NCBI GenBank assembly: GCA_041663025.1
Contig: JBAZRE010000003.1
Location: forward strand, 2,157-66,156
DNA: 64,000 bases
Direction of reading: 5' to 3'
DNA from: Minisyncoccota bacterium
GTDB taxonomy: Bacteria > Patescibacteriota > Minisyncoccia > Phycocordibacterales > Phycocordibacteraceae
Each line of letters starts with the position of its first letter. Position 1 is the stretch's first letter. The notes below the pieces were generated by a model, which worked only from the letters and a program-made list of their open reading frames with translations, made no database searches and was not told the origin of the DNA. This document shows positions 11,688 to 45,126 of this stretch, piece by piece. Both the position numbers and the translations under genes were made by a program.

Positions 11688-11800
11688 CTCTGGGCCGTGA
11701 ACGCGAACTGGAACTCCGGCAACGACGGGTGGAACGTTGAAGCCAATTCGGTCGAGAACCCGAATAGGTGGAGTGCCGACAATCAGGTCGTCTCCCGCAA
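11688..11800 (+). repeat. DGR-1 template repeat (TR1), 113 bp
   Basis: Asn-codon (AAC) rich copy of VR1. Reading frame LWAVNANWNSGNDGWNVEANSVENPNRWSADNQVVSR. Followed by a hairpin plus T-run at 11812-11840. Confidence 0.9.
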
Positions 11801-12208
11801 CTCTCGTCTTTTCCCGTCTCCACTTGGAGGCGGGTTTTTCGCTATAATACCTCTCTTCCATCCACCGACCATGCGTCCTATTTCTTCAACATCTTTCCCG
11901 AGTGATATAAAATGGCTCTGCGCCATGAGTCCTGATTCCCACGCGATTTGGATAAAGAAGCGAACAGCATCAACAGCACGAATTGCTTCTTCAAGTGGGG
12001 GCAATTTTTGGTCGATCGATGCGTATGCGGTTTTACGTAGTGCGTCTAATAAGTTAAGCCAGAGCTTGTCGATCCGGTCACCAATACCGAAGCGCTCTGA
12101 ACGCGCCATTTTCCGATGAGCGACGAGCCAAATTTTGTAAGCGACTTTAGCTCGCTCAATCACCGGCAAAAGCTTCTGGGGGGGGGTTACTTCTAGGAAG
12201 AAATTCAC
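11783..12208 (-). CDS. avd: Avd-like accessory variability determinant (four-helix-bundle protein, 23S rRNA IVS protein family)
   Basis: 141 aa with heptad-rich helical pattern FGIGDRIDKLWLNLLDALRK...EEIGRMVGGWKRG resembling phage BPP-1 Avd and PF05635 proteins. It lies between TR1 and the RT but on the opposite strand. Its N-terminus overlaps the poly-G tract as poly-Pro. Confidence 0.7.
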   Translation of the reverse strand: MNFFLEVTPPQKLLPVIERAKVAYKIWLVAHRKMARSERFGIGDRIDKLWLNLLDALRKTAYASIDQKLPPLEEAIRAVDAVRFFIQIAWESGLMAQSHFISLGKDVEEIGRMVGGWKRGIIAKNPPPSGDGKRRELRETT

Positions 12209-13187
12209 TCATACGTATGAGAGTATCATTTCGGTTGAAAATATTCTCGGCGCGTGGCGAGAATTTATAAAAGGGAAGAGGAAACGTACTGACGTACAAG
12301 AATTTGAAAGATATTTGATGCATAACGTTTTAGAACTGCACCAAGAACTCGTGGCAGGCACCTATCAACATGGCGGCTATCACCATTTCAAGATCAGCGA
12401 CCCCAAGCCGCGCGACATTCATAAAGCGAGTGTGCGTGACCGACTGGTACACCACGCTCTTTATCGTCAACTCTATCCATTTTTTGACAAAACGTTCATC
12501 AGCGATTCGTATTCATGCCGAAGAGAGAAGGGGACACATAAGGCGATGAACCGCTTCAGAGCCTTTGCGCGCAAGGTTTCTAAAAATAATACGCGCACCT
12601 GTTGGGTGTTGAAGTGCGATATCAGAAAATTCTTCGCATCTATCGATCAAGCCAAACTCATACAGATTCTTAAACAGCGAATATCAGACGAACGCATTGT
12701 CCAGCTTGTTGAGAAAGTCATCACGAGTTTCTCAAGTACTGAAAAAGGGAAGGGTCTACCACTCGGGAACCTCACCTCACAACTCCTCGTAAACATCTAT
12801 ATGAACAAGTTTGATCAGTTTGTTAAACATGAGCTAAAAGCAAAGCATTATATTCGCTACGCTGATGACTTTGTATTTTTATCATCCGACCGTTCATTTC
12901 TTACCTCACTTTTGCCCCTTATTCATAATTTTCTACATGACCATCTCGCTCTTGAGTTACATCCAGGTAAGGTCTCTATCAACACGCTTGCATCCGGCAT
13001 TGATTTCCTCGGCTGGGTGCATTTTCCAGACCATCGCGTTTTACGCACCTCTACCAAAAAGCGGATGTTCCGGCGTATTATAGAAACGAAAAGTAGGAAA
13101 GAAACAGTGCAGTCATATCTCGGCCTCTTGAGTCATGGCAACACACATAAACTGCAATCAGTTGCATTTTCTGACTACAACCTATAA
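12150..13187 (+). CDS. DGR reverse transcriptase (copy 1). Track ORF starts at TTG 12315, but the conserved RT N-terminus is in frame from 12150 with no ATG/GTG/TTG
   Basis: LPLGNLTSQLLVNIY is the DGR-specific [IVL]GxxxSQ motif (replacing QGxxxSP). RYADDFVF is the YxDD active site. Upstream in-frame codons encode ...KKFTHTYESIISVENILGAWREFIKGKRKRTDVQEFERYL, the conserved N-terminal extension of DGR RTs. Confidence 0.85.
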   Translation, partial: ARSITGKSFWGGVTSRKKFTHTYESIISVENILGAWREFIKGKRKRTDVQEFERYLMHNVLELHQELVAGTYQHGGYHHFKISDPKPRDIHKASVRDRLVHHALYRQLYPFFDKTFISDSYSCRREKGTHKAMNRFRAFARKVSKNNTRTCWVLKCDIRKFFASIDQAKLIQILKQRISDERIVQLVEKVITSFSSTEKGKGLPLGNLTSQLLVNIYMNKFDQFVKHELKAKHYIRYADDFVFLSSDRSFLTSLLPLIHNFLHDHLALELHPGKVSINTLASGIDFLGWVHFPDHRVLRTSTKKRMFRRIIETKSRKETVQSYLGLLSHGNTHKLQSVAFSDYNL

Positions 13188-23055: not shown

Positions 23056-23766
23056 ATGGGGTTGCGTGGACCAAAGCCTAGGAGAAGGGAAGTAATCTGG
23101 TCGCCAGAATTGGCGTACGCGATCGGGCTTATTGCGACTGACGGTTGTCTCTCAAATGATGGTAGACATTTATTATTCGTTTCTAAAGATCTTGAGCAGA
23201 TTAAAAATCTTAAGAAAGCGCTCGGACTTAAAGTAAAAATTGGTATCCATCGAGCAGGTGCTAGAATGAAAAACCGGCTTTATCACAGAGTGCAGTGGGG
23301 CGATGTCGTTTTCTATAACTTTTTACTTGAAATAGGACTTACACAGAACAAGTCTAAAACAATTGGAGTACTCGCTATACCAGACAAATACTTTTTCGAC
23401 TTCTTGCGTGGCAGCTTCGATGGCGATGGCTCCTTTTACAGTTATTTTGACCCACGTTGGAAATCGAGCTTTATGTATTACGTCAGTATAACTTCTGCAA
23501 GTTCATTGCACATCGATTGGTTGAGAGAAACACTTCATCGTCTACTTAGTGTAGACGGGCACATATCAAAAATGGGAGAAAATAGAGAAGATCGGAATCC
23601 AATATTTAATCTAAGGTTTGCAAAAAGAGAATCACTGCTAGTTATGAACGCCATGTACTCCACTTCTTGCTTGATACACCTATCTCGCAAAAGATTGAAA
23701 ATAGCGCGCGCTTTGCGTATAGTAGGGGAGTCATTGCTTTCGCGTAGAAAGAAATTGACGAAGTAA
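23056..23766 (+). CDS. Double-motif LAGLIDADG homing endonuclease; stop codon 1 nt before tRNA-Leu
   Basis: 236 aa with two canonical motifs LAYAIGLIATDGCLS and FLRGSFDGDGSF separated by about 95 aa. Confidence 0.8.
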   Translation: MGLRGPKPRRREVIWSPELAYAIGLIATDGCLSNDGRHLLFVSKDLEQIKNLKKALGLKVKIGIHRAGARMKNRLYHRVQWGDVVFYNFLLEIGLTQNKSKTIGVLAIPDKYFFDFLRGSFDGDGSFYSYFDPRWKSSFMYYVSITSASSLHIDWLRETLHRLLSVDGHISKMGENREDRNPIFNLRFAKRESLLVMNAMYSTSCLIHLSRKRLKIARALRIVGESLLSRRKKLTK

Positions 23767-27363: not shown

Positions 27364-27549
27364 ATGACATCACTCTTCACCTATCTGAAGCATGTTCGCG
27401 AAGAATTCACGCATATCGTCTGGCCGACACGGCACACAGCGATCGCGCATACACTCGTGGTCATTTTTATCGCGGCGGTCATCGCTCTTCTTGTGGGGTT
27501 GCTCGACTACATCTTCGGTTTGGGAGTGAGTCGCGCCATTATCGGCTAA
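27364..27549 (+). CDS. secE: Preprotein translocase subunit SecE
   Basis: 61 aa with single TM helix. Conserved position directly upstream of nusG. Confidence 0.75.
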   Translation: MTSLFTYLKHVREEFTHIVWPTRHTAIAHTLVVIFIAAVIALLVGLLDYIFGLGVSRAIIG

Positions 27550-27559
27550 CTTTTCTTAT

Positions 27560-28198
27560 ATGGATGAACAATACTCACCGCGAGAAGAGATGGAGATGCC
27601 TGATGAAGTTGGCATGGCAGATATTGCGCCCTCAGTGAAAAAGGAGGTTCGTGATGAAGTTGTACAAAACGAATCAGATGCGCGCTGGTACACCATTCAT
27701 ACGTATGCCGGTTATGAGAACGCCGTTGAACGCAACTTGAAGCAGCGCATTGAGTCTCTCGGTATGGAGGAGAAGATTTTTGATGTCATTGTCCCAACCG
27801 AAAAGAAGATTCGCGTGAAGGGAGGCAAGCGCATTGTTGAAGAAGAGAAAATATACCCAGGATATATTCTCGTGCGGATGATTGTTGATGATGATTCGTG
27901 GTTCGTGGTGCGCAATACTCCGCGCGTGACAGGCTTTGTCGGCGCGGGCAACACACCCGTCCCTATGGAGGAGTCTGAAGTGACATCCCTGATGAAGCGT
28001 ATGACAGCCGAGGCGCCCAAGCATCGTATTGACCTCGTCAAAGAGGATCCGGTCGTTATCGCCGATGGTCCCTTCAAGGATCTTGAGGGCAAGGTGAGCG
28101 AAATTGATGAAGATCGAGGGAAGGTGAAGGTGATGGTCTCGATGTTCGGGCGCGAGACGCCAGTAGAATTAGATTTCCTTCAGATAAGGAAACTCTAA
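27560..28198 (+). CDS. nusG: Transcription termination/antitermination factor NusG (with N-terminal acidic extension)
   Basis: 212 aa. NGN domain (WYTIHTYAGYENAV), KOW motif (VRVKGGKRIVEEEKIYPGYILVRM...VSEIDEDRGKVKVMVSMFGRETPVEL). Confidence 0.85.
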   Translation: MDEQYSPREEMEMPDEVGMADIAPSVKKEVRDEVVQNESDARWYTIHTYAGYENAVERNLKQRIESLGMEEKIFDVIVPTEKKIRVKGGKRIVEEEKIYPGYILVRMIVDDDSWFVVRNTPRVTGFVGAGNTPVPMEESEVTSLMKRMTAEAPKHRIDLVKEDPVVIADGPFKDLEGKVSEIDEDRGKVKVMVSMFGRETPVELDFLQIRKL

Positions 28199-28217
28199 TT
28201 CTAAGCACCAAGCACCA

Positions 28218-28690
28218 AATTCGAAATCCCAAATAAGCACCAAGCACGAAATCATAAATGATGCCAAAGCTCAAAAAATGAAATCTGAAAAGAAATTTGA
28301 CTTAGAGGAGCGAACACTTGATTTTGCGAAAGATGTTCGCAAGCTTGTTAAAGCACTCCCGAAATCAGTTGCACTTATTGAAGACGGGAAACAATTAGTA
28401 CGTTCGTCAGGATCAGTAGGAGCGAATTATATCGAAGCGAATGAGGCGTTGAGCAAAAAGGATTTTATGATGCGAGTCAAAATCGCACGCAAAGAAGCAA
28501 AGGAGAGCCGCTACTGGCTGAAACTAATCGAGGTCTCGGAACAGTTTGAAAAAGATCGTGCTAATTTGGAACAAGAAGCAGTCGAACTCACGAAGATCTT
28601 GAGCACAATTTTGCAAAAAGCTACAGTTTAATCCTGTGTTTATTATTTTGAACTTGTTTCGTGCTTGGTGCTTGAGATTTGGAATTTTTT
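28218..28690. mobile_element. IR-flanked insertion between nusG and rplK carrying a four-helix-bundle (PF05635-like) gene
   Basis: Left arm aaattcgaaatcccaaataagcaccaagcacgaaa (28218-28252) and right arm (reverse complement) aaattccaaatctcaagcaccaagcacgaaa (28657-28690). The core 17 bp aagcaccaagcacgaaa is a perfect inverted repeat. A partial direct copy aagcaccaagcac lies at 28203-28215. Confidence 0.5.
28278..28631 (+). CDS. Four-helix-bundle protein (23S rRNA intervening-sequence protein / Avd-like family), stand-alone
   Basis: 117 aa. ...SVGANYIEANEALSKKDFMMRVKIARKEAKESRYWLKLI... is the family pattern shared with avd1 and avd2 in this window. Confidence 0.65.
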   Translation: MKSEKKFDLEERTLDFAKDVRKLVKALPKSVALIEDGKQLVRSSGSVGANYIEANEALSKKDFMMRVKIARKEAKESRYWLKLIEVSEQFEKDRANLEQEAVELTKILSTILQKATV

Positions 28691-28716
28691 CCACGCCGTG
28701 GTAGCGTGGGGACACT

Positions 28717-29136
28717 ATGGCTAAAGTAGTAAAAAAGATAAAACTTCAGATCCCGGGCGGCAAGGCTACGCCTGCGCCTCCTGTCGGCACTGCGCTTGGG
28801 CCAGCCGGCGTGAACATTGGTCAATTTGTGACCCAGTTTAACGACGCGACCAAGGACAAGATGGGCATCATCATCCCGGTTGAGCTCTCGGTCTTTGATG
28901 ATCGTACCTTCACCTTCATCATGAAGAATCCGCCGGCCTCGCGCCTTATCCTCAAGGCGCTCGGTATCGAGAAGGGCTCGATGAAACCAAAAGAAACTAA
29001 AGTGGGCACACTGACGAAGGCGCAGGTCGCCGAGATTGTCGCGGAGAAGATCCCAGACATGAACGCAAGCTCGCCCGAGGCAGCAGCCCGCACGATCGAG
29101 GGCACAGCACGAAGCATGGGCATTTCAGTAAAATAA
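28717..29136 (+). CDS. rplK: 50S ribosomal protein L11
   Basis: 139 aa. [43 protein letters not shown] is the L11 N-terminal signature. Confidence 0.9.
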
Positions 29137-29172
29137 GGCTAACTTTGTGGAAGTCCGACTTCCACAGAAACA

Positions 29173-29203
29173 GAAAAGGCGCTTTTGAGGCGCCTTTTTG
29201 TTT
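29173..29203. terminator. Bidirectional intrinsic terminator between rplK (+) and folA (-)
   Basis: aaaaggcgc ttttgag gcgcc tttttgttt: GC stem flanked by A-run upstream and T-run downstream. Confidence 0.6.
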
Positions 29204-29209
29204 GATCAA

Positions 29210-29734
29210 CTAACGCGAATAGGTTTCAAATAACGTTTCATATTCATCATTTGGATTCCACTTGCGCCGGCCAGAGCTTCTTATACTTTTCCATTCCATG
29301 CTCGTTATCGCTGGGAAGTACACGTCGCCACACAGCTCTGGTGCGTAAACGGTGGTGAGGCACAACCTCTTTACGTGTTGCATCGGTAGAAAAAGATTAA
29401 AGATTTCTCCTCCGCCGATTACACAAGCACGTCCCCCATGTTCGGCAACTTTCTCAAGTGCTTTTTGAATCGAGTCAACAAACTGCACTAAGTCGTGATT
29501 GGAACGAACATATCTTCTCGTAAGCACAATATGCTTCCGATCAGGAAGCGGTCTTGCATTACGACGGAGAATTGACTCATACGTCTTACGTCCCATCACC
29601 ACAACTCCCGCTTCTGTGGTGATTTGTTTGAATCGAGCCAAATCGCTTGGCAGCTTCTGCCACGGCAGTTTGCCGTTGTTCCCGATAACCCGCTCTTGTG
29701 TCATCGCTACGATGATAGAAAGATCAATATCCAT
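29210..29734 (-). CDS. folA: Dihydrofolate reductase
   Basis: Internal Met20 of track ORF. MDIDLSIIVAMTQERVIGNNGKLPWQKLPSDLARFKQITTEAGVVVMGRKTYESI is the DHFR signature. Confidence 0.85.
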   Translation of the reverse strand: MDIDLSIIVAMTQERVIGNNGKLPWQKLPSDLARFKQITTEAGVVVMGRKTYESILRRNARPLPDRKHIVLTRRYVRSNHDLVQFVDSIQKALEKVAEHGGRACVIGGGEIFNLFLPMQHVKRLCLTTVYAPELCGDVYFPAITSMEWKSIRSSGRRKWNPNDEYETLFETYSR

Positions 29735-29896
29735 ACAAACCTCCTCTTGTGAATTTATTTTCCTTCTGCACCTTCTCGCACATGCCGCCAAATGTCAAAT
29801 TGGCACCATTTGTTATTTGGCTCGCTTGGTAGTAGAGTCTGCGCCAGACAGTCTGTACAAATAAACCACATAAAACATAGAAAGGGAGGGTGAGAA

Positions 29897-32938: not shown

Positions 32939-34597
32939 ATGGAAGAGCGAATCAAAAAAGCAGTTGGCGAGGCACTCATGAAGATGGGTGCTGGCGAGGT
33001 CGCGTTTGTGGTCGAACGGCCTGCAGACATGCGGCACGGCGACTACACGACCAATGCCGCGATGGCGGCAGCAAAGAAGCTGGGGAAGAACTCGCGCGAG
33101 CTTGCTGATGAGCTTGCGCGAGTATTGATCGATGAACTGGACAAAGACACCGCGAGCTATGTTGCCGTTGCGGGGCCAGGATTTGTGAACATCACTCTCG
33201 CACCAGAAGCGATTGCACTTGCTGTTGCCGAGGCGGATGCAAAAAAAGAAGAGTGGGGTATGGGTAGCGTGAATAGTGAGCAAAGAGTGCTGATTGAATA
33301 CACTGACCCGAATCCGTTTAAAGAGATGCACATCGGGCACTTGATGAGCAATGTAATTGGCGAGTCGCTCGCGCGACTTATCGAGAATGAGAATGCAACA
33401 GTCATTCGTGCCAATTATCAAGGCGACGTCGGGCCGCACGTCGCTAAGGCGCTTTGGGGCTTGCAGAGGGCGGGCACGAGCGAGCCGGTAACCGCAAAAG
33501 AAATCGGCACCGCCTATGCCGCAGGATCGCTCGCATATGAAGACTCGCCTGAAGCAAAAGCAGAAGTTGATGCATTAAATCAAGAAATCTATGCAGGTAA
33601 GAATCATGAGCTGATGGAGCTCTGGCGCAAGGGTCGTGACGTGTCGCTCGAGGCGTTTGAACAACTCTACAAAATATTAGGGACGCATTTTGATTACTAT
33701 TTCTACGAGAGTGAAACAGCGGATCCAGGATTGCGTATCGTGCATGATGGTATCAAACAGGGAGTTTTTGAAGAAAGCGAGGGCGCGATTATTTATCGCG
33801 GCGAAAAGAAAGGATTGCACACGCTTGTTTTCATCACAAGCAAAGGCACACCAACGTATGAGGCAAAGGATATTGGTCTCGCTTTTTTGAAAGAGGAACG
33901 GGTGCAGAGCGACCGTTCGATTATCGTGACCGCATCAGAACAGATTGGGCATTTTAAGGTATTTCTTGCGGCGCTTAATGAAATCGCGCATCTCATTGCA
34001 AAGAAAACAGTGCATGTGCCGCATGGATTCTTGCGGCTCACAACAGGGAAGATGTCTTCGCGCGAAGGTAATGTCATCACGGCGGAATCGCTCATAAAAG
34101 ACATTATCAAGAAGGCAAGCGAGAAGAATGCGGATCCGCTTATCGCCGAGCAGGTCGCGCTCGGCGCGATTAAATACATGATTCTGCGACAAGCGCCGGG
34201 CTCGGACATCATTTTTGATCCGGAGAAGTCACTCTCGCTTGAGGGTGACTCTGGGCCGTATCTGCAGTATGCACTAGTCCGAGCACGTTCCGTGCTCGAG
34301 AAAGCACGAAGCACGAAGCACGAAGCACGAAACGAAAAACCAGAAATGCCGTACCGATTAGAGCGCCTGGTCGTGCATTTCCCTGAAGTTACTGCGCGTG
34401 CAGCGAGCGAGCTCGCGCCAAACTTGCTGGTGAACTATCTCACCGAGCTCGCGGGAGAGTGGAACTCATTTTATGCACAAGAAAAAATCATTGGCGGCGA
34501 GAATGAAGCACATAAACTTATGATTGCGCGTGCATTCATCAACACAATGACCAGAGGTCTAGCTCTCCTGGGTATCCCCACACCAGAGAGGATGTAA
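32939..34597 (+). CDS. argS: Arginyl-tRNA synthetase
   Basis: Internal ATG (MEERIKKAVGEAL) of track ORF 32684..34597. HIGH-region variant PNPFKEMHIGHLMS, a KMSSRE-like degenerate KMSKS, and a DALR anticodon-binding domain. Confidence 0.85.
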   Translation: MEERIKKAVGEALMKMGAGEVAFVVERPADMRHGDYTTNAAMAAAKKLGKNSRELADELARVLIDELDKDTASYVAVAGPGFVNITLAPEAIALAVAEADAKKEEWGMGSVNSEQRVLIEYTDPNPFKEMHIGHLMSNVIGESLARLIENENATVIRANYQGDVGPHVAKALWGLQRAGTSEPVTAKEIGTAYAAGSLAYEDSPEAKAEVDALNQEIYAGKNHELMELWRKGRDVSLEAFEQLYKILGTHFDYYFYESETADPGLRIVHDGIKQGVFEESEGAIIYRGEKKGLHTLVFITSKGTPTYEAKDIGLAFLKEERVQSDRSIIVTASEQIGHFKVFLAALNEIAHLIAKKTVHVPHGFLRLTTGKMSSREGNVITAESLIKDIIKKASEKNADPLIAEQVALGAIKYMILRQAPGSDIIFDPEKSLSLEGDSGPYLQYALVRARSVLEKARSTKHEARNEKPEMPYRLERLVVHFPEVTARAASELAPNLLVNYLTELAGEWNSFYAQEKIIGGENEAHKLMIARAFINTMTRGLALLGIPTPERM

Positions 34598-43738: not shown

Positions 43739-44089
43739 TCACGGCACGAGCGAGTTTTGTTTTGTGAGCTGACCATTCCAACCGCCAAGCATCTTGCCGA
43801 TTTCTTCGAGCGGAATGGAGAGTGCAACATATTCTTTCGTCTCAAGCGATTTGGTCTCCCAGAGAATCAACAGAAATATTTTCAACGTTTCAAGCTTGCG
43901 TATGGCGAGCCGCACCCATGGTTGCTTCTCGGTTTTTGAGAGGAATGTTGCGCTCGCGACTGCCTCAATCAGTGTGACAAATTCTGCATCTATCTTGCCA
44001 CCGAGCGTATAGCGATGAGTCTTAGGGATTGTCTGATAAAATGTATACCATAGGATATACGCATGCTTAATTCTCTCCAAAACAGGCAA
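43739..44089 (-). CDS. avd: Avd-like accessory variability determinant (copy 2)
   Basis: 116 aa starting at TTG. IPKTHRYTLGGKIDAEFVTLIEA...EEIGKMLGGWNGQL matches avd1 and the BPP-1 Avd pattern. Antisense to TR2 and RT2. Confidence 0.7.
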   Translation of the reverse strand: MPVLERIKHAYILWYTFYQTIPKTHRYTLGGKIDAEFVTLIEAVASATFLSKTEKQPWVRLAIRKLETLKIFLLILWETKSLETKEYVALSIPLEEIGKMLGGWNGQLTKQNSLVP

Positions 44090-45126
44090 GAGCTTCTGGG
44101 GGGGGGGTTACTTCTAGGAAGAAATTCACTCATTCATCCGAGCATATCATTTCAGTTGAAAATTTACTCGGAGCGTGGCAAGAATTTATAAGGGGCAAAC
44201 GCAAACGTGATGACGTACAAGAATTCGAACGGTATTTGATGCACAATGTTTTAGAATTGCATCGCGAGCTTGCTGCTGGCACCTATAAACACGGCGGCTA
44301 CCATCACTTTAAGATCAGCGACCCGAAACCACGCGATATTCATAAAGCGAGCGTGCGAGATCGGCTCATTCATCACGCTCTCTATCGCCAACTTTATCCA
44401 TTCTTTGACCGTACATTCATACTAGACTCGTATTCGTGCCGCCTCAACAGAGGCACTCATCGGGCGATGAACCGCTTTCGAGCTTTCGCATATCAAGTAT
44501 CTAAAAACGACACGTGCACTTGCTGGGTTCTCAAATGCGATATACGAAAGTTCTTCGCTTCCATCGATCAAGAAATATTGATGGAGATTATTAGTACCTA
44601 TATATCAGATAAACGCATCTGTGTACTTATCCAAAATATCATCACCAGCTTCAACTCTTGTGCAACAAGGAAGGGTTTGCCACTCGGGAACCTTACCTCG
44701 CAACTGCTTGTGAATATCTATATGGGTGAATTTGACCAGTTTGTTAAACATAAACTAAAAGTGAAGTATTATATCCGCTACGCAGACGACTTTGTGATTC
44801 TTTCTGCTAACAAAAATTATTTGTTGCGAGTACTACCATATATGGAAGCATTTTTGCATGACCAACTAAAGCTCAGTCTGCATCCAGACAAAGTATTCAT
44901 AAGAACCCTTGCCTCAGGGATTGATTTTCTTGGTTGGATGCATCGCCCCAATTATCGCGTATTACGGACGGCAACCAAAAATAGGATGTTCCGCACGATC
45001 AAAAAGAGCGAAGGGAAGCCTGAAGTGCTGCACTCTTATCTTGGCATGTTGAGTCATGGAAACACACAGAGACTTCAAGAGAAAGCAATTTCTTTCGCAA
45101 ATATGCTAGGATGCCCGTATGGATAA
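44071..45126 (+). CDS. DGR reverse transcriptase (copy 2). Track ORF starts at TTG 44236; conserved N-terminal coding is in frame from 44071 without a canonical start
   Basis: LPLGNLTSQLLVNIY ([IVL]GxxxSQ) and RYADDFVIL. About 75% aa identity to RT1. Upstream in-frame ...KKFTHSSEHIISVENLLGAWQEFIRGKRKRDDVQEFERYL. Confidence 0.85.
   Translation, partial: FSPKQARASGGGVTSRKKFTHSSEHIISVENLLGAWQEFIRGKRKRDDVQEFERYLMHNVLELHRELAAGTYKHGGYHHFKISDPKPRDIHKASVRDRLIHHALYRQLYPFFDRTFILDSYSCRLNRGTHRAMNRFRAFAYQVSKNDTCTCWVLKCDIRKFFASIDQEILMEIISTYISDKRICVLIQNIITSFNSCATRKGLPLGNLTSQLLVNIYMGEFDQFVKHKLKVKYYIRYADDFVILSANKNYLLRVLPYMEAFLHDQLKLSLHPDKVFIRTLASGIDFLGWMHRPNYRVLRTATKNRMFRTIKKSEGKPEVLHSYLGMLSHGNTQRLQEKAISFANMLGCPYG

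Follow-up and report, generated by a model that had tools for sequence, protein, structure and literature searches.

The DNA analysed here is a stretch of 64,000 nucleotides (nt) from contig JBAZRE010000003.1 of a Minisyncoccota bacterium, referred to in its entirety as the window. Between its nusG and rplK genes lies a cassette that consists of a single open reading frame (ORF) for a four-helix-bundle protein and, on either side of it, arrays of 7-nt repeats that form its arms. An initial annotation, made from the letters of the sequence, had already recognized a gene of the PF05635 type inserted between nusG and rplK and bracketed by inverted repeats. The locus is composed of the following elements.

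27364-27549: secE, Pfam-confirmed
27560-28198: nusG, Pfam-confirmed, with its stop codon at 28196-28198
28199-28699, plus strand: complete cassette of 501 nt, from the nusG stop codon to the ancestral 17-nt spacer, delimited by comparison with empty sites in relatives
28203-28234, plus strand: outer left array, AAGCACC AAGCACC AAATTCG AAATCCC AAAT, which includes the partial direct copy seen in the initial annotation
28235-28262, plus strand: inner left array, AAGCACC AAGCACG AAATCAT AAATGAT, the first 17 nt of which are the perfect inverted-repeat core
28278-28631, plus strand: four-helix-bundle ORF of 117 amino acids, PF05635/TIGR02436 (Pfam, TIGR02436, AlphaFold)
28653-28687, minus strand: right array of five units, AAATTCC AAATCTC AAGCACC AAGCACG AAACAAG, homologous to the right arms of relatives L083 and L150
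28691-28709, plus strand: small hairpin, CCACGC-cgtggta-GCGTGG, across the right junction and upstream of rplK, read from the sequence
28700-28716, plus strand: ancestral nusG-rplK spacer kept 3' of the insertion, which aligns with the 17-18 nt spacers of empty sites
28717-29136: rplK, Pfam-confirmed

Ever since the intervening sequences (IVSs) of 23S rRNA were seen in the 1990s to contain ORFs, members of the PF05635 family have simply been given the labels "four helix bundle protein" and "S23 ribosomal protein", and we know of no function for the family. The cassette ORF matches both PF05635 (E 4.9e-17, 62.5 bits against a cut-off of 33.8) and TIGR02436 (E 3.7e-23, 81.8 bits against a cut-off of 24), which bears out its initial assignment, and its product is identical to an NCBI entry named "four helix bundle protein" from a Candidatus Paceibacterota bacterium. 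In the AlphaFold model, which has a predicted local distance difference test score (pLDDT) of 93.3, the four helices span residues 10-26, 31-55, 60-83 and 88-116. The top solved structures retrieved with Foldseek are 2RLD (TM-score 0.75-0.81) and 2GSC ("S23 family"), followed by those of Avd (4DWL, 8UB7), a protein of diversity-generating retroelements (DGRs). The 2RLD structure has five chains, and pentamers are stated for homologues (PMC4990558; 10.1101/2023.10.23.563531); by homology to 2RLD and Avd, the cassette protein is probably a homopentameric ring. The ratios of nonsynonymous to synonymous substitution (dN/dS) of 0.04-0.3 in homologue pairs indicate that the ORF is under purifying selection. 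Neither a nuclease domain (GIY-YIG, HNH, LAGLIDADG or PD-(D/E)XK) nor an HUH/Y1 transposase was recognized in the protein with profiles or Foldseek, membership in a known defence system was rejected as PADLOC gave no match, and phmmer found no further PF05635 gene in the window.

A repeat search recovered everything that had first been described around the ORF: imperfect inverted repeats of about 30 bp, their perfect core of 17 nt and, on the left side, a partial direct copy. Positions 28235-28251 and 28657-28673 form a perfect inverted pair of 17 nt (100%), 28197-28226 and 28657-28686 form an imperfect one of 30 nt (73% complementary), and the partial direct copy on the left relates 28202-28227 to 28234-28259 (85%). 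The arm repeats are far above chance: the 17-mer, with up to three mismatches, occurs seven times in the window against 0.19 expected, and the local alignment of one flank to the other scores 36, compared with a mean of 14.7 and a maximum of 21 for shuffled sequences. In the minimum-free-energy fold of the element as RNA, an arm-arm stem closes the ORF (z = -3.2), with the 17-bp perfect core inside approximately 35 bp of imperfect pairing.

Occupancy of the nusG-rplK spacer

A metagenome scan with NusG gave 80 loci with NusG sequences 83-92% identical, 73 of which also contain rplK. In 46 of these 73 relatives the nusG-rplK spacer measures 16-27 nt, with a mode of 18 nt (for example, CTC TAA GGTAGAGTCACATCCACT ATG), in six it measures 35-54 nt, and the remainder carry inserts. 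The spacer of the window is 518 nt long and retains a copy of the old spacer, GGTAGCGTGGGGACACT, directly 5' of the rplK ATG; therefore, the inserted DNA comprises the 501 nt from the nusG stop codon on, 28199-28699. The short spacers of the relatives confirm the proposal of a discrete insertion into a conserved operon, with borders that replace the 28218-28690 first given. Empty sites, which the initial annotation had suggested looking for, include those of the closest NusG relatives of the window (L082, L085), and occupancy is patchy among near-identical NusG sequences. Four-helix-bundle cassettes are present at the same site in L083, L084, L150 and L118, with proteins that are 72-76% identical and right arms homologous to those of the window, and in L090 the spacer holds a 145-nt hairpin of left and right arm without the gene. 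Two further possibilities had been raised at the outset, namely that the gene might occupy this place without the repeats and that the repeats might be a leader or attenuator of rplK. In L083, L084 and L150 the gene comes together with its arms, and a leader or attenuator was rejected, as the empty sites of only 16-27 nt lack the repeats and Rfam, which matched only tRNAs in the window, detected neither an rRNA nor a leader in the nusG-rplK region.

Other inserts are found in this spacer in further relatives. Genes of the GxxExxY type, encoding 131-137 amino acids (TIGR04256, PD-(D/E)XK-like) and bracketed by ATGCGAATGATACGAATG-type inverted repeats, are present in L116, L127, L131 and L147, with a remnant in L106, and GIY-YIG genes of 89 amino acids are present in L124 and L136. 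A different, structured insert of 96-145 nt, with a promoter-like TTGACC ... TATAGAT and GC-rich hairpins, characterizes L086, L089, L092, L100, L102, L108, L126 and L140; some lineages may have gained it as an internal promoter or leader for rplK. The Paceibacteria nusG-rplK spacer is a hotspot, colonized by small selfish genes of at least three kinds that are unrelated to one another.

A homing-type element would colonize such a spacer without transposition, spreading only by homologous recombination via the conserved flanking genes, in the manner of free-standing homing-endonuclease genes of phage, with arms that serve only to make the insertion harmless at the RNA level. We consider this route quite unlikely for the cassette, even though GIY-YIG and GxxExxY genes share its site, the state of the site is patchy among near-identical NusG sequences, and another site, leuC-leuD, is occupied across classes of Planctomycetota: a nuclease motif is absent from the four-helix-bundle protein, the family described below was sampled in 80 cassettes that sit at many unrelated sites, and its dispersed miniatures imply that new sites are colonized.

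No sigma-70-like promoter was found between nusG and the cassette ORF, and terminator-like sites lie 5' of secE and 3' of rplK, from which we infer that the cassette is co-transcribed with the operon. The small hairpin across the right junction is built half of inserted DNA and half of old spacer. Hairpins at the same place in L083 (CCATACG/CGTATGG) and L150 (CACTAtGC/GCgTAGTG) show compensatory changes, and at empty sites the nusG stop codon is often part of a small stem. The comparison of these sequences suggests a structure needed for rplK expression, which would have been rebuilt after the insertion.

Cassettes with heptamer arms and their miniatures

A scan of one genome per GTDB species gave 80 loci with proteins 57-69% identical to the cassette protein, from organisms that include Planctomycetota, Desulfobacterota, Bacteroidota, Chloroflexota, Acidobacteriota, Gammaproteobacteria and many lineages of the candidate phyla radiation (CPR). 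The flanks of these genes have a sharp 7-nt periodicity, and in 58 of the 80 loci the complementarity between upstream and downstream flank exceeds that of all shuffles (median z 6.8). The canonical left arm consists of four units of the form AA[A/G/T]NNC plus a "flavour" base, a fifth unit AAACAAA and approximately 5 nt before the ATG, and the canonical right arm is the reverse complement of a like array, located approximately 20-35 nt past the stop codon. Five is the modal number of units on both sides (45/80 left arms, 44/80 right arms), and in 29 loci the final left unit is separated from the ATG by 5 nt. The flavour base, at position 7 of the unit, is G, T or C; it is constant within an arm and concordant between left and right arms (GG 25, TT 17, CC 11), with few discordant loci. 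The inverted repeats of the initial annotation are real, but they are tandem heptamer arrays rather than simple terminal repeats. Those of the window are in-register arrays of 7-nt units that represent a variant of mixed C/G flavour, with AAGCAC units dominating the paired core, and the left arm appeared to contain a partial direct copy because its units slip in phase by 4 nt and its outer portion is partially duplicated.

More distant members, with 36-52% identity, keep the 7-nt period with different units (AAAAGGC, GTAAAAA, AATTAGC, AAGATAC, AATTCAA, ATGAAGG, AATTAGG, CCGCTCT); four-helix-bundle genes on Nostoc plasmids, for instance, sit within AATTCAA arrays. On plasmids of Pseudanabaena (L181) and Anabaena (L182), heptamer-armed four-helix-bundle genes are located at csx2-cas1 and cas2-cas1. 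A large clustering study lists "23S rRNA IVP" as a CRISPR-associated domain (PMC10910872), and cas-adjacent sites together with array-like flanks may explain that listing.

The genomic sites of the family differ, and the 80 loci include no other case of the nusG-rplK context. In 72 of them the upstream gene has the orientation of the cassette gene, with gaps that barely exceed the length of the arm. Recurrent sites are leuC-leuD, occupied in eight Planctomycetota of two classes, the spacer between V-ATPase subunits B and D, and the position directly upstream of recA in Balneolaceae, while plasmid homologues (36-48% identity) are found at csx2-cas1, cas2-cas1, RND adaptor-permease, hsdS-hsdR and helicase-methylase junctions. 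The cassette is thus a resident of operons, where it often separates genes whose products are subunits of a single machine; an Rfam scan of 19 homologue loci revealed no rRNA context. The idea that gene and arms move as a unit holds, in that armed cassettes occupy 80 different sites with an arm type that follows the protein tree.

Strong purifying selection and co-orientation with the host operons, in addition to the conserved hairpin 5' of rplK in filled alleles and an apparently long-term residence at leuC-leuD, would also suit a domesticated host gene, that is, an immobile regulator or RNA chaperone of the ribosomal-protein operon for which the repeats serve as operator or leader. Such a role is very improbable given that most close relatives lack the cassette and have spacers of 17-18 nt, that homologues reside in functionally unrelated operons and that copies without the ORF exist.

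These ORF-less copies are arm-arm palindromes of 130-190 nt, at most 4 kb from full-length cassettes, in L018, L026 (two copies), L032, L054 (two copies), L057, L069 and L077. Extra arrays within 4 kb match the flavour of the resident cassette in 20 of 26 cases, against 10.4 expected. The arm motif is also present in 19 IMG/VR contigs (L162-L180), in several of them as complete miniatures, and none of these contigs contains the four-helix-bundle gene. Among the viral or proviral contigs, L163, L165, L170, L174 and L178 are examples with G-flavour ORF-less palindromes. Carriage of the gene itself by phages was rejected after a scan of IMG/VR with 8-mer peptides, which gave no close relative and only the ORF-less miniatures. 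The pairing of full-length and miniature forms resembles, by analogy, that of autonomous and non-autonomous mobile elements, or of RAYT and REPIN.

Arm type and protein sequence

The flavour of the arms is coupled to the sequence of the protein. The nearest protein neighbour shares flavour in 50 of 63 cases, against 24 expected (0 of 2000 permutations). Residue 113 of the window protein, located in helix 4 within the motif IFGSIL-x-KS, has 1.21 bits of mutual information with flavour, compared with a null 95th percentile of 0.60. This residue is basic (Arg, Lys or His) in 30 of 32 G-type loci and in none of 31 T/C-type loci, being Thr or Glu in T-type loci and Glu, Asn, Gln, Ala or others in C-type loci. 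On a tree based on only the first 110 alignment columns, which excludes the tested region, 12-15 of 14-17 phylogenetically independent contrasts between G and non-G are concordant, two are tied and none is opposite (sign test approximately 1e-4). Residues 105, 106 and 109 of helix 4 likewise track flavour, and residues 105, 109 and 113, at i, i+4 and i+8, lie on one face of the α-helix.

That the unit co-varies with both the protein lineage and a helix-4 residue argues that the protein recognizes the arms. A constant period with drifting sequence, a number of units equal to the number of subunits and an arginine for G are, as read from the sequences, the signature that direct recognition by an oligomer would be expected to leave. 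Inverted arrays offer identical sites only on duplex DNA; the direct arrays of distant members and the Avd precedent point, by analogy, to RNA as the target.

The initial annotation had viewed the locus as a minimal non-autonomous element with a cargo gene. ORF-less copies do exist, but the protein does not look like passive cargo, given its coupling to the unit. In the cargo reading, the arms would be a miniature inverted-repeat transposable element (MITE) moved by an unrelated transposase encoded elsewhere, with the gene merely caught in its loop. In favour of it, ORF-less elements of 130-190 nt are often seen close to cassettes, the arm motif turns up in 19 viral contigs that lack the gene, one such miniature sits at nusG-rplK itself (L090), and the cassette protein has no recognizable catalytic domain. 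We nonetheless regard it as unlikely, since a passive cargo would be expected neither to co-vary with the unit in lineage and in helix 4 nor to keep, in distant members, the same 7-nt period with different heptamers; moreover, the cargo is always of one family, and neither a transposase nor a target-site duplication was found.

Proposed explanation and known systems

On the basis of these comparisons, we think it fairly probable that the cassette is a self-contained selfish element akin to the ORF-carrying 23S rRNA IVSs, lodged in the spacer of a protein-coding operon. Each protomer of the pentameric protein would bind one unit of the heptamer arrays that flank its gene, so that five protomers match five units; the hold of the homologous Avd pentamer on an imperfect RNA stem, known from the DGR ribonucleoprotein, would be comparable. 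Without a promoter of its own, the cassette would be co-transcribed with secE-nusG-rplK, and in the transcript the arms could pair into an imperfect stem around the ORF. This stem may be cut by RNase III, like those of rRNA IVSs, which would uncouple the cassette from its neighbours, and the action of the protein, and possibly of RNase III, on the arm helix would limit the harm to the operon and control the expression of the cassette itself. A broader generalization is possible, although we think it less likely than not: IVS proteins might be sequence-specific readers of tandem heptamers, with a pentamer for five units and a helix-4 residue that sets the base (Arg, Lys or His for G), and might form with their arrays a hitherto unrecognized class of operon-dwelling elements that crosses phyla. 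As a similarly tentative part of this generalization, the class would have autonomous (ORF-bearing) and miniature forms.

Several observations weigh against the proposed selfish element and its mechanism. Binding, processing and movement are each deduced wholly by comparison. A target-site duplication, which the initial annotation had anticipated as a possible trace of insertion, is not visible when empty and filled nusG-rplK sites are compared (a single site), no other cassette copy or ORF-less miniature was found in the window, and no catalytic domain was recognized in the protein with Pfam, TIGR02436 or PADLOC. Between the window and its same-site relatives, nusG, rplK and the cassette have all reached saturation at synonymous sites, and the distribution may reflect ancient vertical residence with repeated loss; with these sites saturated and the NusG tree too shallow, the cassette may have been gained at nusG-rplK once or repeatedly, and the window copy may have arrived recently or be an old one that other lineages have lost. 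The link between residue and flavour was assessed on a crude tree, and its strength could be overstated if recombination transfers the C-terminal codons and the neighbouring right arm as one piece.

Other points of this kind concern the RNA stem. Across 38 in-register loci, 81% of arm positions are able to pair. The arms are approximately 71-76% identical in register, complementarity within a flavour is no higher for arms of the same locus than across loci (0.564 vs 0.573, permutation p 0.73), and most loci leave the middle of units 2 and 3 unpaired; therefore, there is no evident selection for a long, perfect RNase III duplex. Covariation is limited to the four flavour columns and is possibly a lineage effect, and locus-specific compensatory covariation of the arms, sought as proof of an RNA stem, was not found. 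In some distant members the arrays are direct and not inverted, which a simple stem model fits poorly.

If the broader generalization is correct, it would offer one explanation for the ORFs in 23S rRNA IVSs, a puzzle of 30 years' standing, for some of the heptamer repeats in cyanobacteria and Bacteroidota that are so far unexplained, and for how Avd, the DGR protein that grips RNA, arose in evolution. Binding of the pentamer to its own array, with residue 113 setting the base preference, would add a new rule of protein-repeat recognition and a widespread class of elements inside essential operons, even between the subunit genes of one enzyme, and would explain both the spurious "CRISPR association" of the PF05635 family and the repeat-rich spacers that break assemblies. 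The comparative data make pentamer-array binding and the base preference of residue 113 concretely and cheaply testable. The window instance is one member of a large family, the architecture and apparent protein-repeat code of which seem undescribed: in full-text searches, heptamer-armed four-helix-bundle cassettes were undescribed beyond a remark on the Coxiella IVS, which is not proof of novelty.

Elsewhere, the window contains two DGR-like loci, identified by their reverse transcriptase and Avd genes.

11783-13187: DGR-like locus 1, with a reverse transcriptase at 12315-13187 (plus strand) and a divergent Avd-like gene at 11783-12208 (minus strand)
43739-45126: DGR-like locus 2, with a reverse transcriptase at 44236-45126 (plus strand) and a bAvd gene at 43739-44089 (minus strand)

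The N-termini of the two reverse transcriptases are nearly identical. The cassette gene had been counted as the third member of one family in the window, which is accurate only at the level of fold or superfamily: the other two are DGR Avds (PF22296/NF033474-like), to which the cassette protein has no BLASTP similarity, and it does not match the PF22296 and NF033474 Avd models. The extension of repeat-bounded mobility to the Avd genes fails, as they have no flanking inverted repeats. With its Avd-like fold, and with reverse transcriptase and Avd loci at approximately 12 kb and 44 kb, the cassette protein might be taken for an orphan third Avd that acts in trans with the DGR reverse transcriptases of the window; this is improbable in the extreme, considering that each reverse transcriptase already has an adjacent Avd, that the cassette protein resembles neither these nor the Avd models in sequence, and that homologous cassettes reside in operon spacers with no reverse transcriptase nearby.

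Downstream of rplK, the region 29137-29791 contains a bidirectional terminator-like hairpin (29174-29198) and a minus-strand dihydrofolate reductase gene; rplA does not adjoin rplK, so that this genome lacks the usual rplKA pairing. An ORF of 236 amino acids at 23056-23766, directly after rplS, has a faint match to LAGLIDADG_3 in the precomputed annotation and may be another free-standing homing-endonuclease-like gene beside a ribosomal protein gene. A perfect (AAGCACG)x4 run, with a unit identical to that of the cassette arms, is present in the coding sequence of argS (34302-34329). Its origin as a solo-arm insertion was rejected, as the run is located within a linker of variable length and the peptide KARSTKHEA is also encoded by the closest homologue. 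Many CPR homologues of ArgRS (P0139-P0187) are called as DALR-only proteins of approximately 179-200 amino acids on long contigs, which suggests split or interrupted argS genes in relatives.

Several known systems share individual traits with the cassette. The Correia/NEMIS elements of Neisseria and the enterobacterial repetitive intergenic consensus (ERIC) elements are imperfect palindromes located in operon spacers and co-transcribed, and Correia elements are substrates of RNase III. The ORF-less miniatures of the cassette resemble them in being imperfect palindromes of approximately 130-190 nt in operon spacers; however, Correia and ERIC elements, as MITEs, have simple terminal inverted repeats, target-site duplications and no version with a cognate protein, unlike the cassette family. 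Compared with MITEs and insertion sequences in general, the cassette has terminal inverted repeats, although its arms are subterminal tandem arrays, and it encodes no recognizable transposase, the helical bundle being its only ORF, although an enzyme might act on it in trans. The free-standing homing-endonuclease genes of phage T4 (seg and mob) are small selfish ORFs wedged between conserved co-transcribed genes. The cassette shares this placement, but its protein has no nuclease domain. By analogy only, five units for five subunits liken the cassette to TRAP and Hfq, rings that read tandem short RNA repeats, and a 7-nt period kept while the unit sequence drifts likens it to the short tandemly repeated repetitive (STRR) sequences and other heptamer repeats of cyanobacteria (PMC4679880). 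No link between STRR repeats and the PF05635 family was reported in the papers searched.

The REPIN-RAYT system is alike in that a single gene lies between inverted short repeats that are also dispersed as ORF-less hairpin doublets, that the repeat type co-evolves with the protein and that the copies are intergenic. The ORF-less doublets of the cassette are known from other genomes and not from within the 64-kb window. RAYTs are homologues of HUH/Y1 transposases and have their catalytic residues, whereas the cassette protein is a helical bundle of 117 amino acids without a known catalytic site, and the repeats are REP palindromes in the one case and tandem heptamer arrays in the other.

The 23S rRNA IVSs of Leptospira and Coxiella burnetii have in common with the cassette a PF05635 protein, complementary termini that can enclose the ORF in a stem and tandem heptamers at the start codon, and both have long been suspected of being selfish or mobile. 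In the Coxiella IVS, (GACAGAT)x3 precedes the start codon of S23p, and the repeat varies between strains (PMC4990558). The IVS is located in helix 45/25 of 23S rRNA and the cassette in the mRNA spacer of an operon, where, unlike the IVS, it has five-unit arrays on both sides. Excision by RNase III has been demonstrated for IVSs and is proposed by analogy for the cassette, and while the ORF of the Coxiella IVS is decaying, cassette ORFs are under purifying selection.

The Avd protein of the Bordetella phage BPP-1 DGR (4DWL, 8UB7) shares the four-helix-bundle fold with the cassette protein (TM-score approximately 0.7). Avd genes adjoin a DGR reverse transcriptase with template and variable repeats, whereas the cassette has none of these adjacent, the nearest reverse transcriptases being approximately 15 kb away and provided with Avds of their own. 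The Avd pentamer is a positively charged barrel in which each of the five protomers takes part in holding an 11-bp RNA stem-loop, and flipped-out bases in the crevices between protomers are contacted by the same residues of different protomers (10.1101/2023.10.23.563531). By analogy, Avd would be the best mechanistic precedent for the cassette protein.

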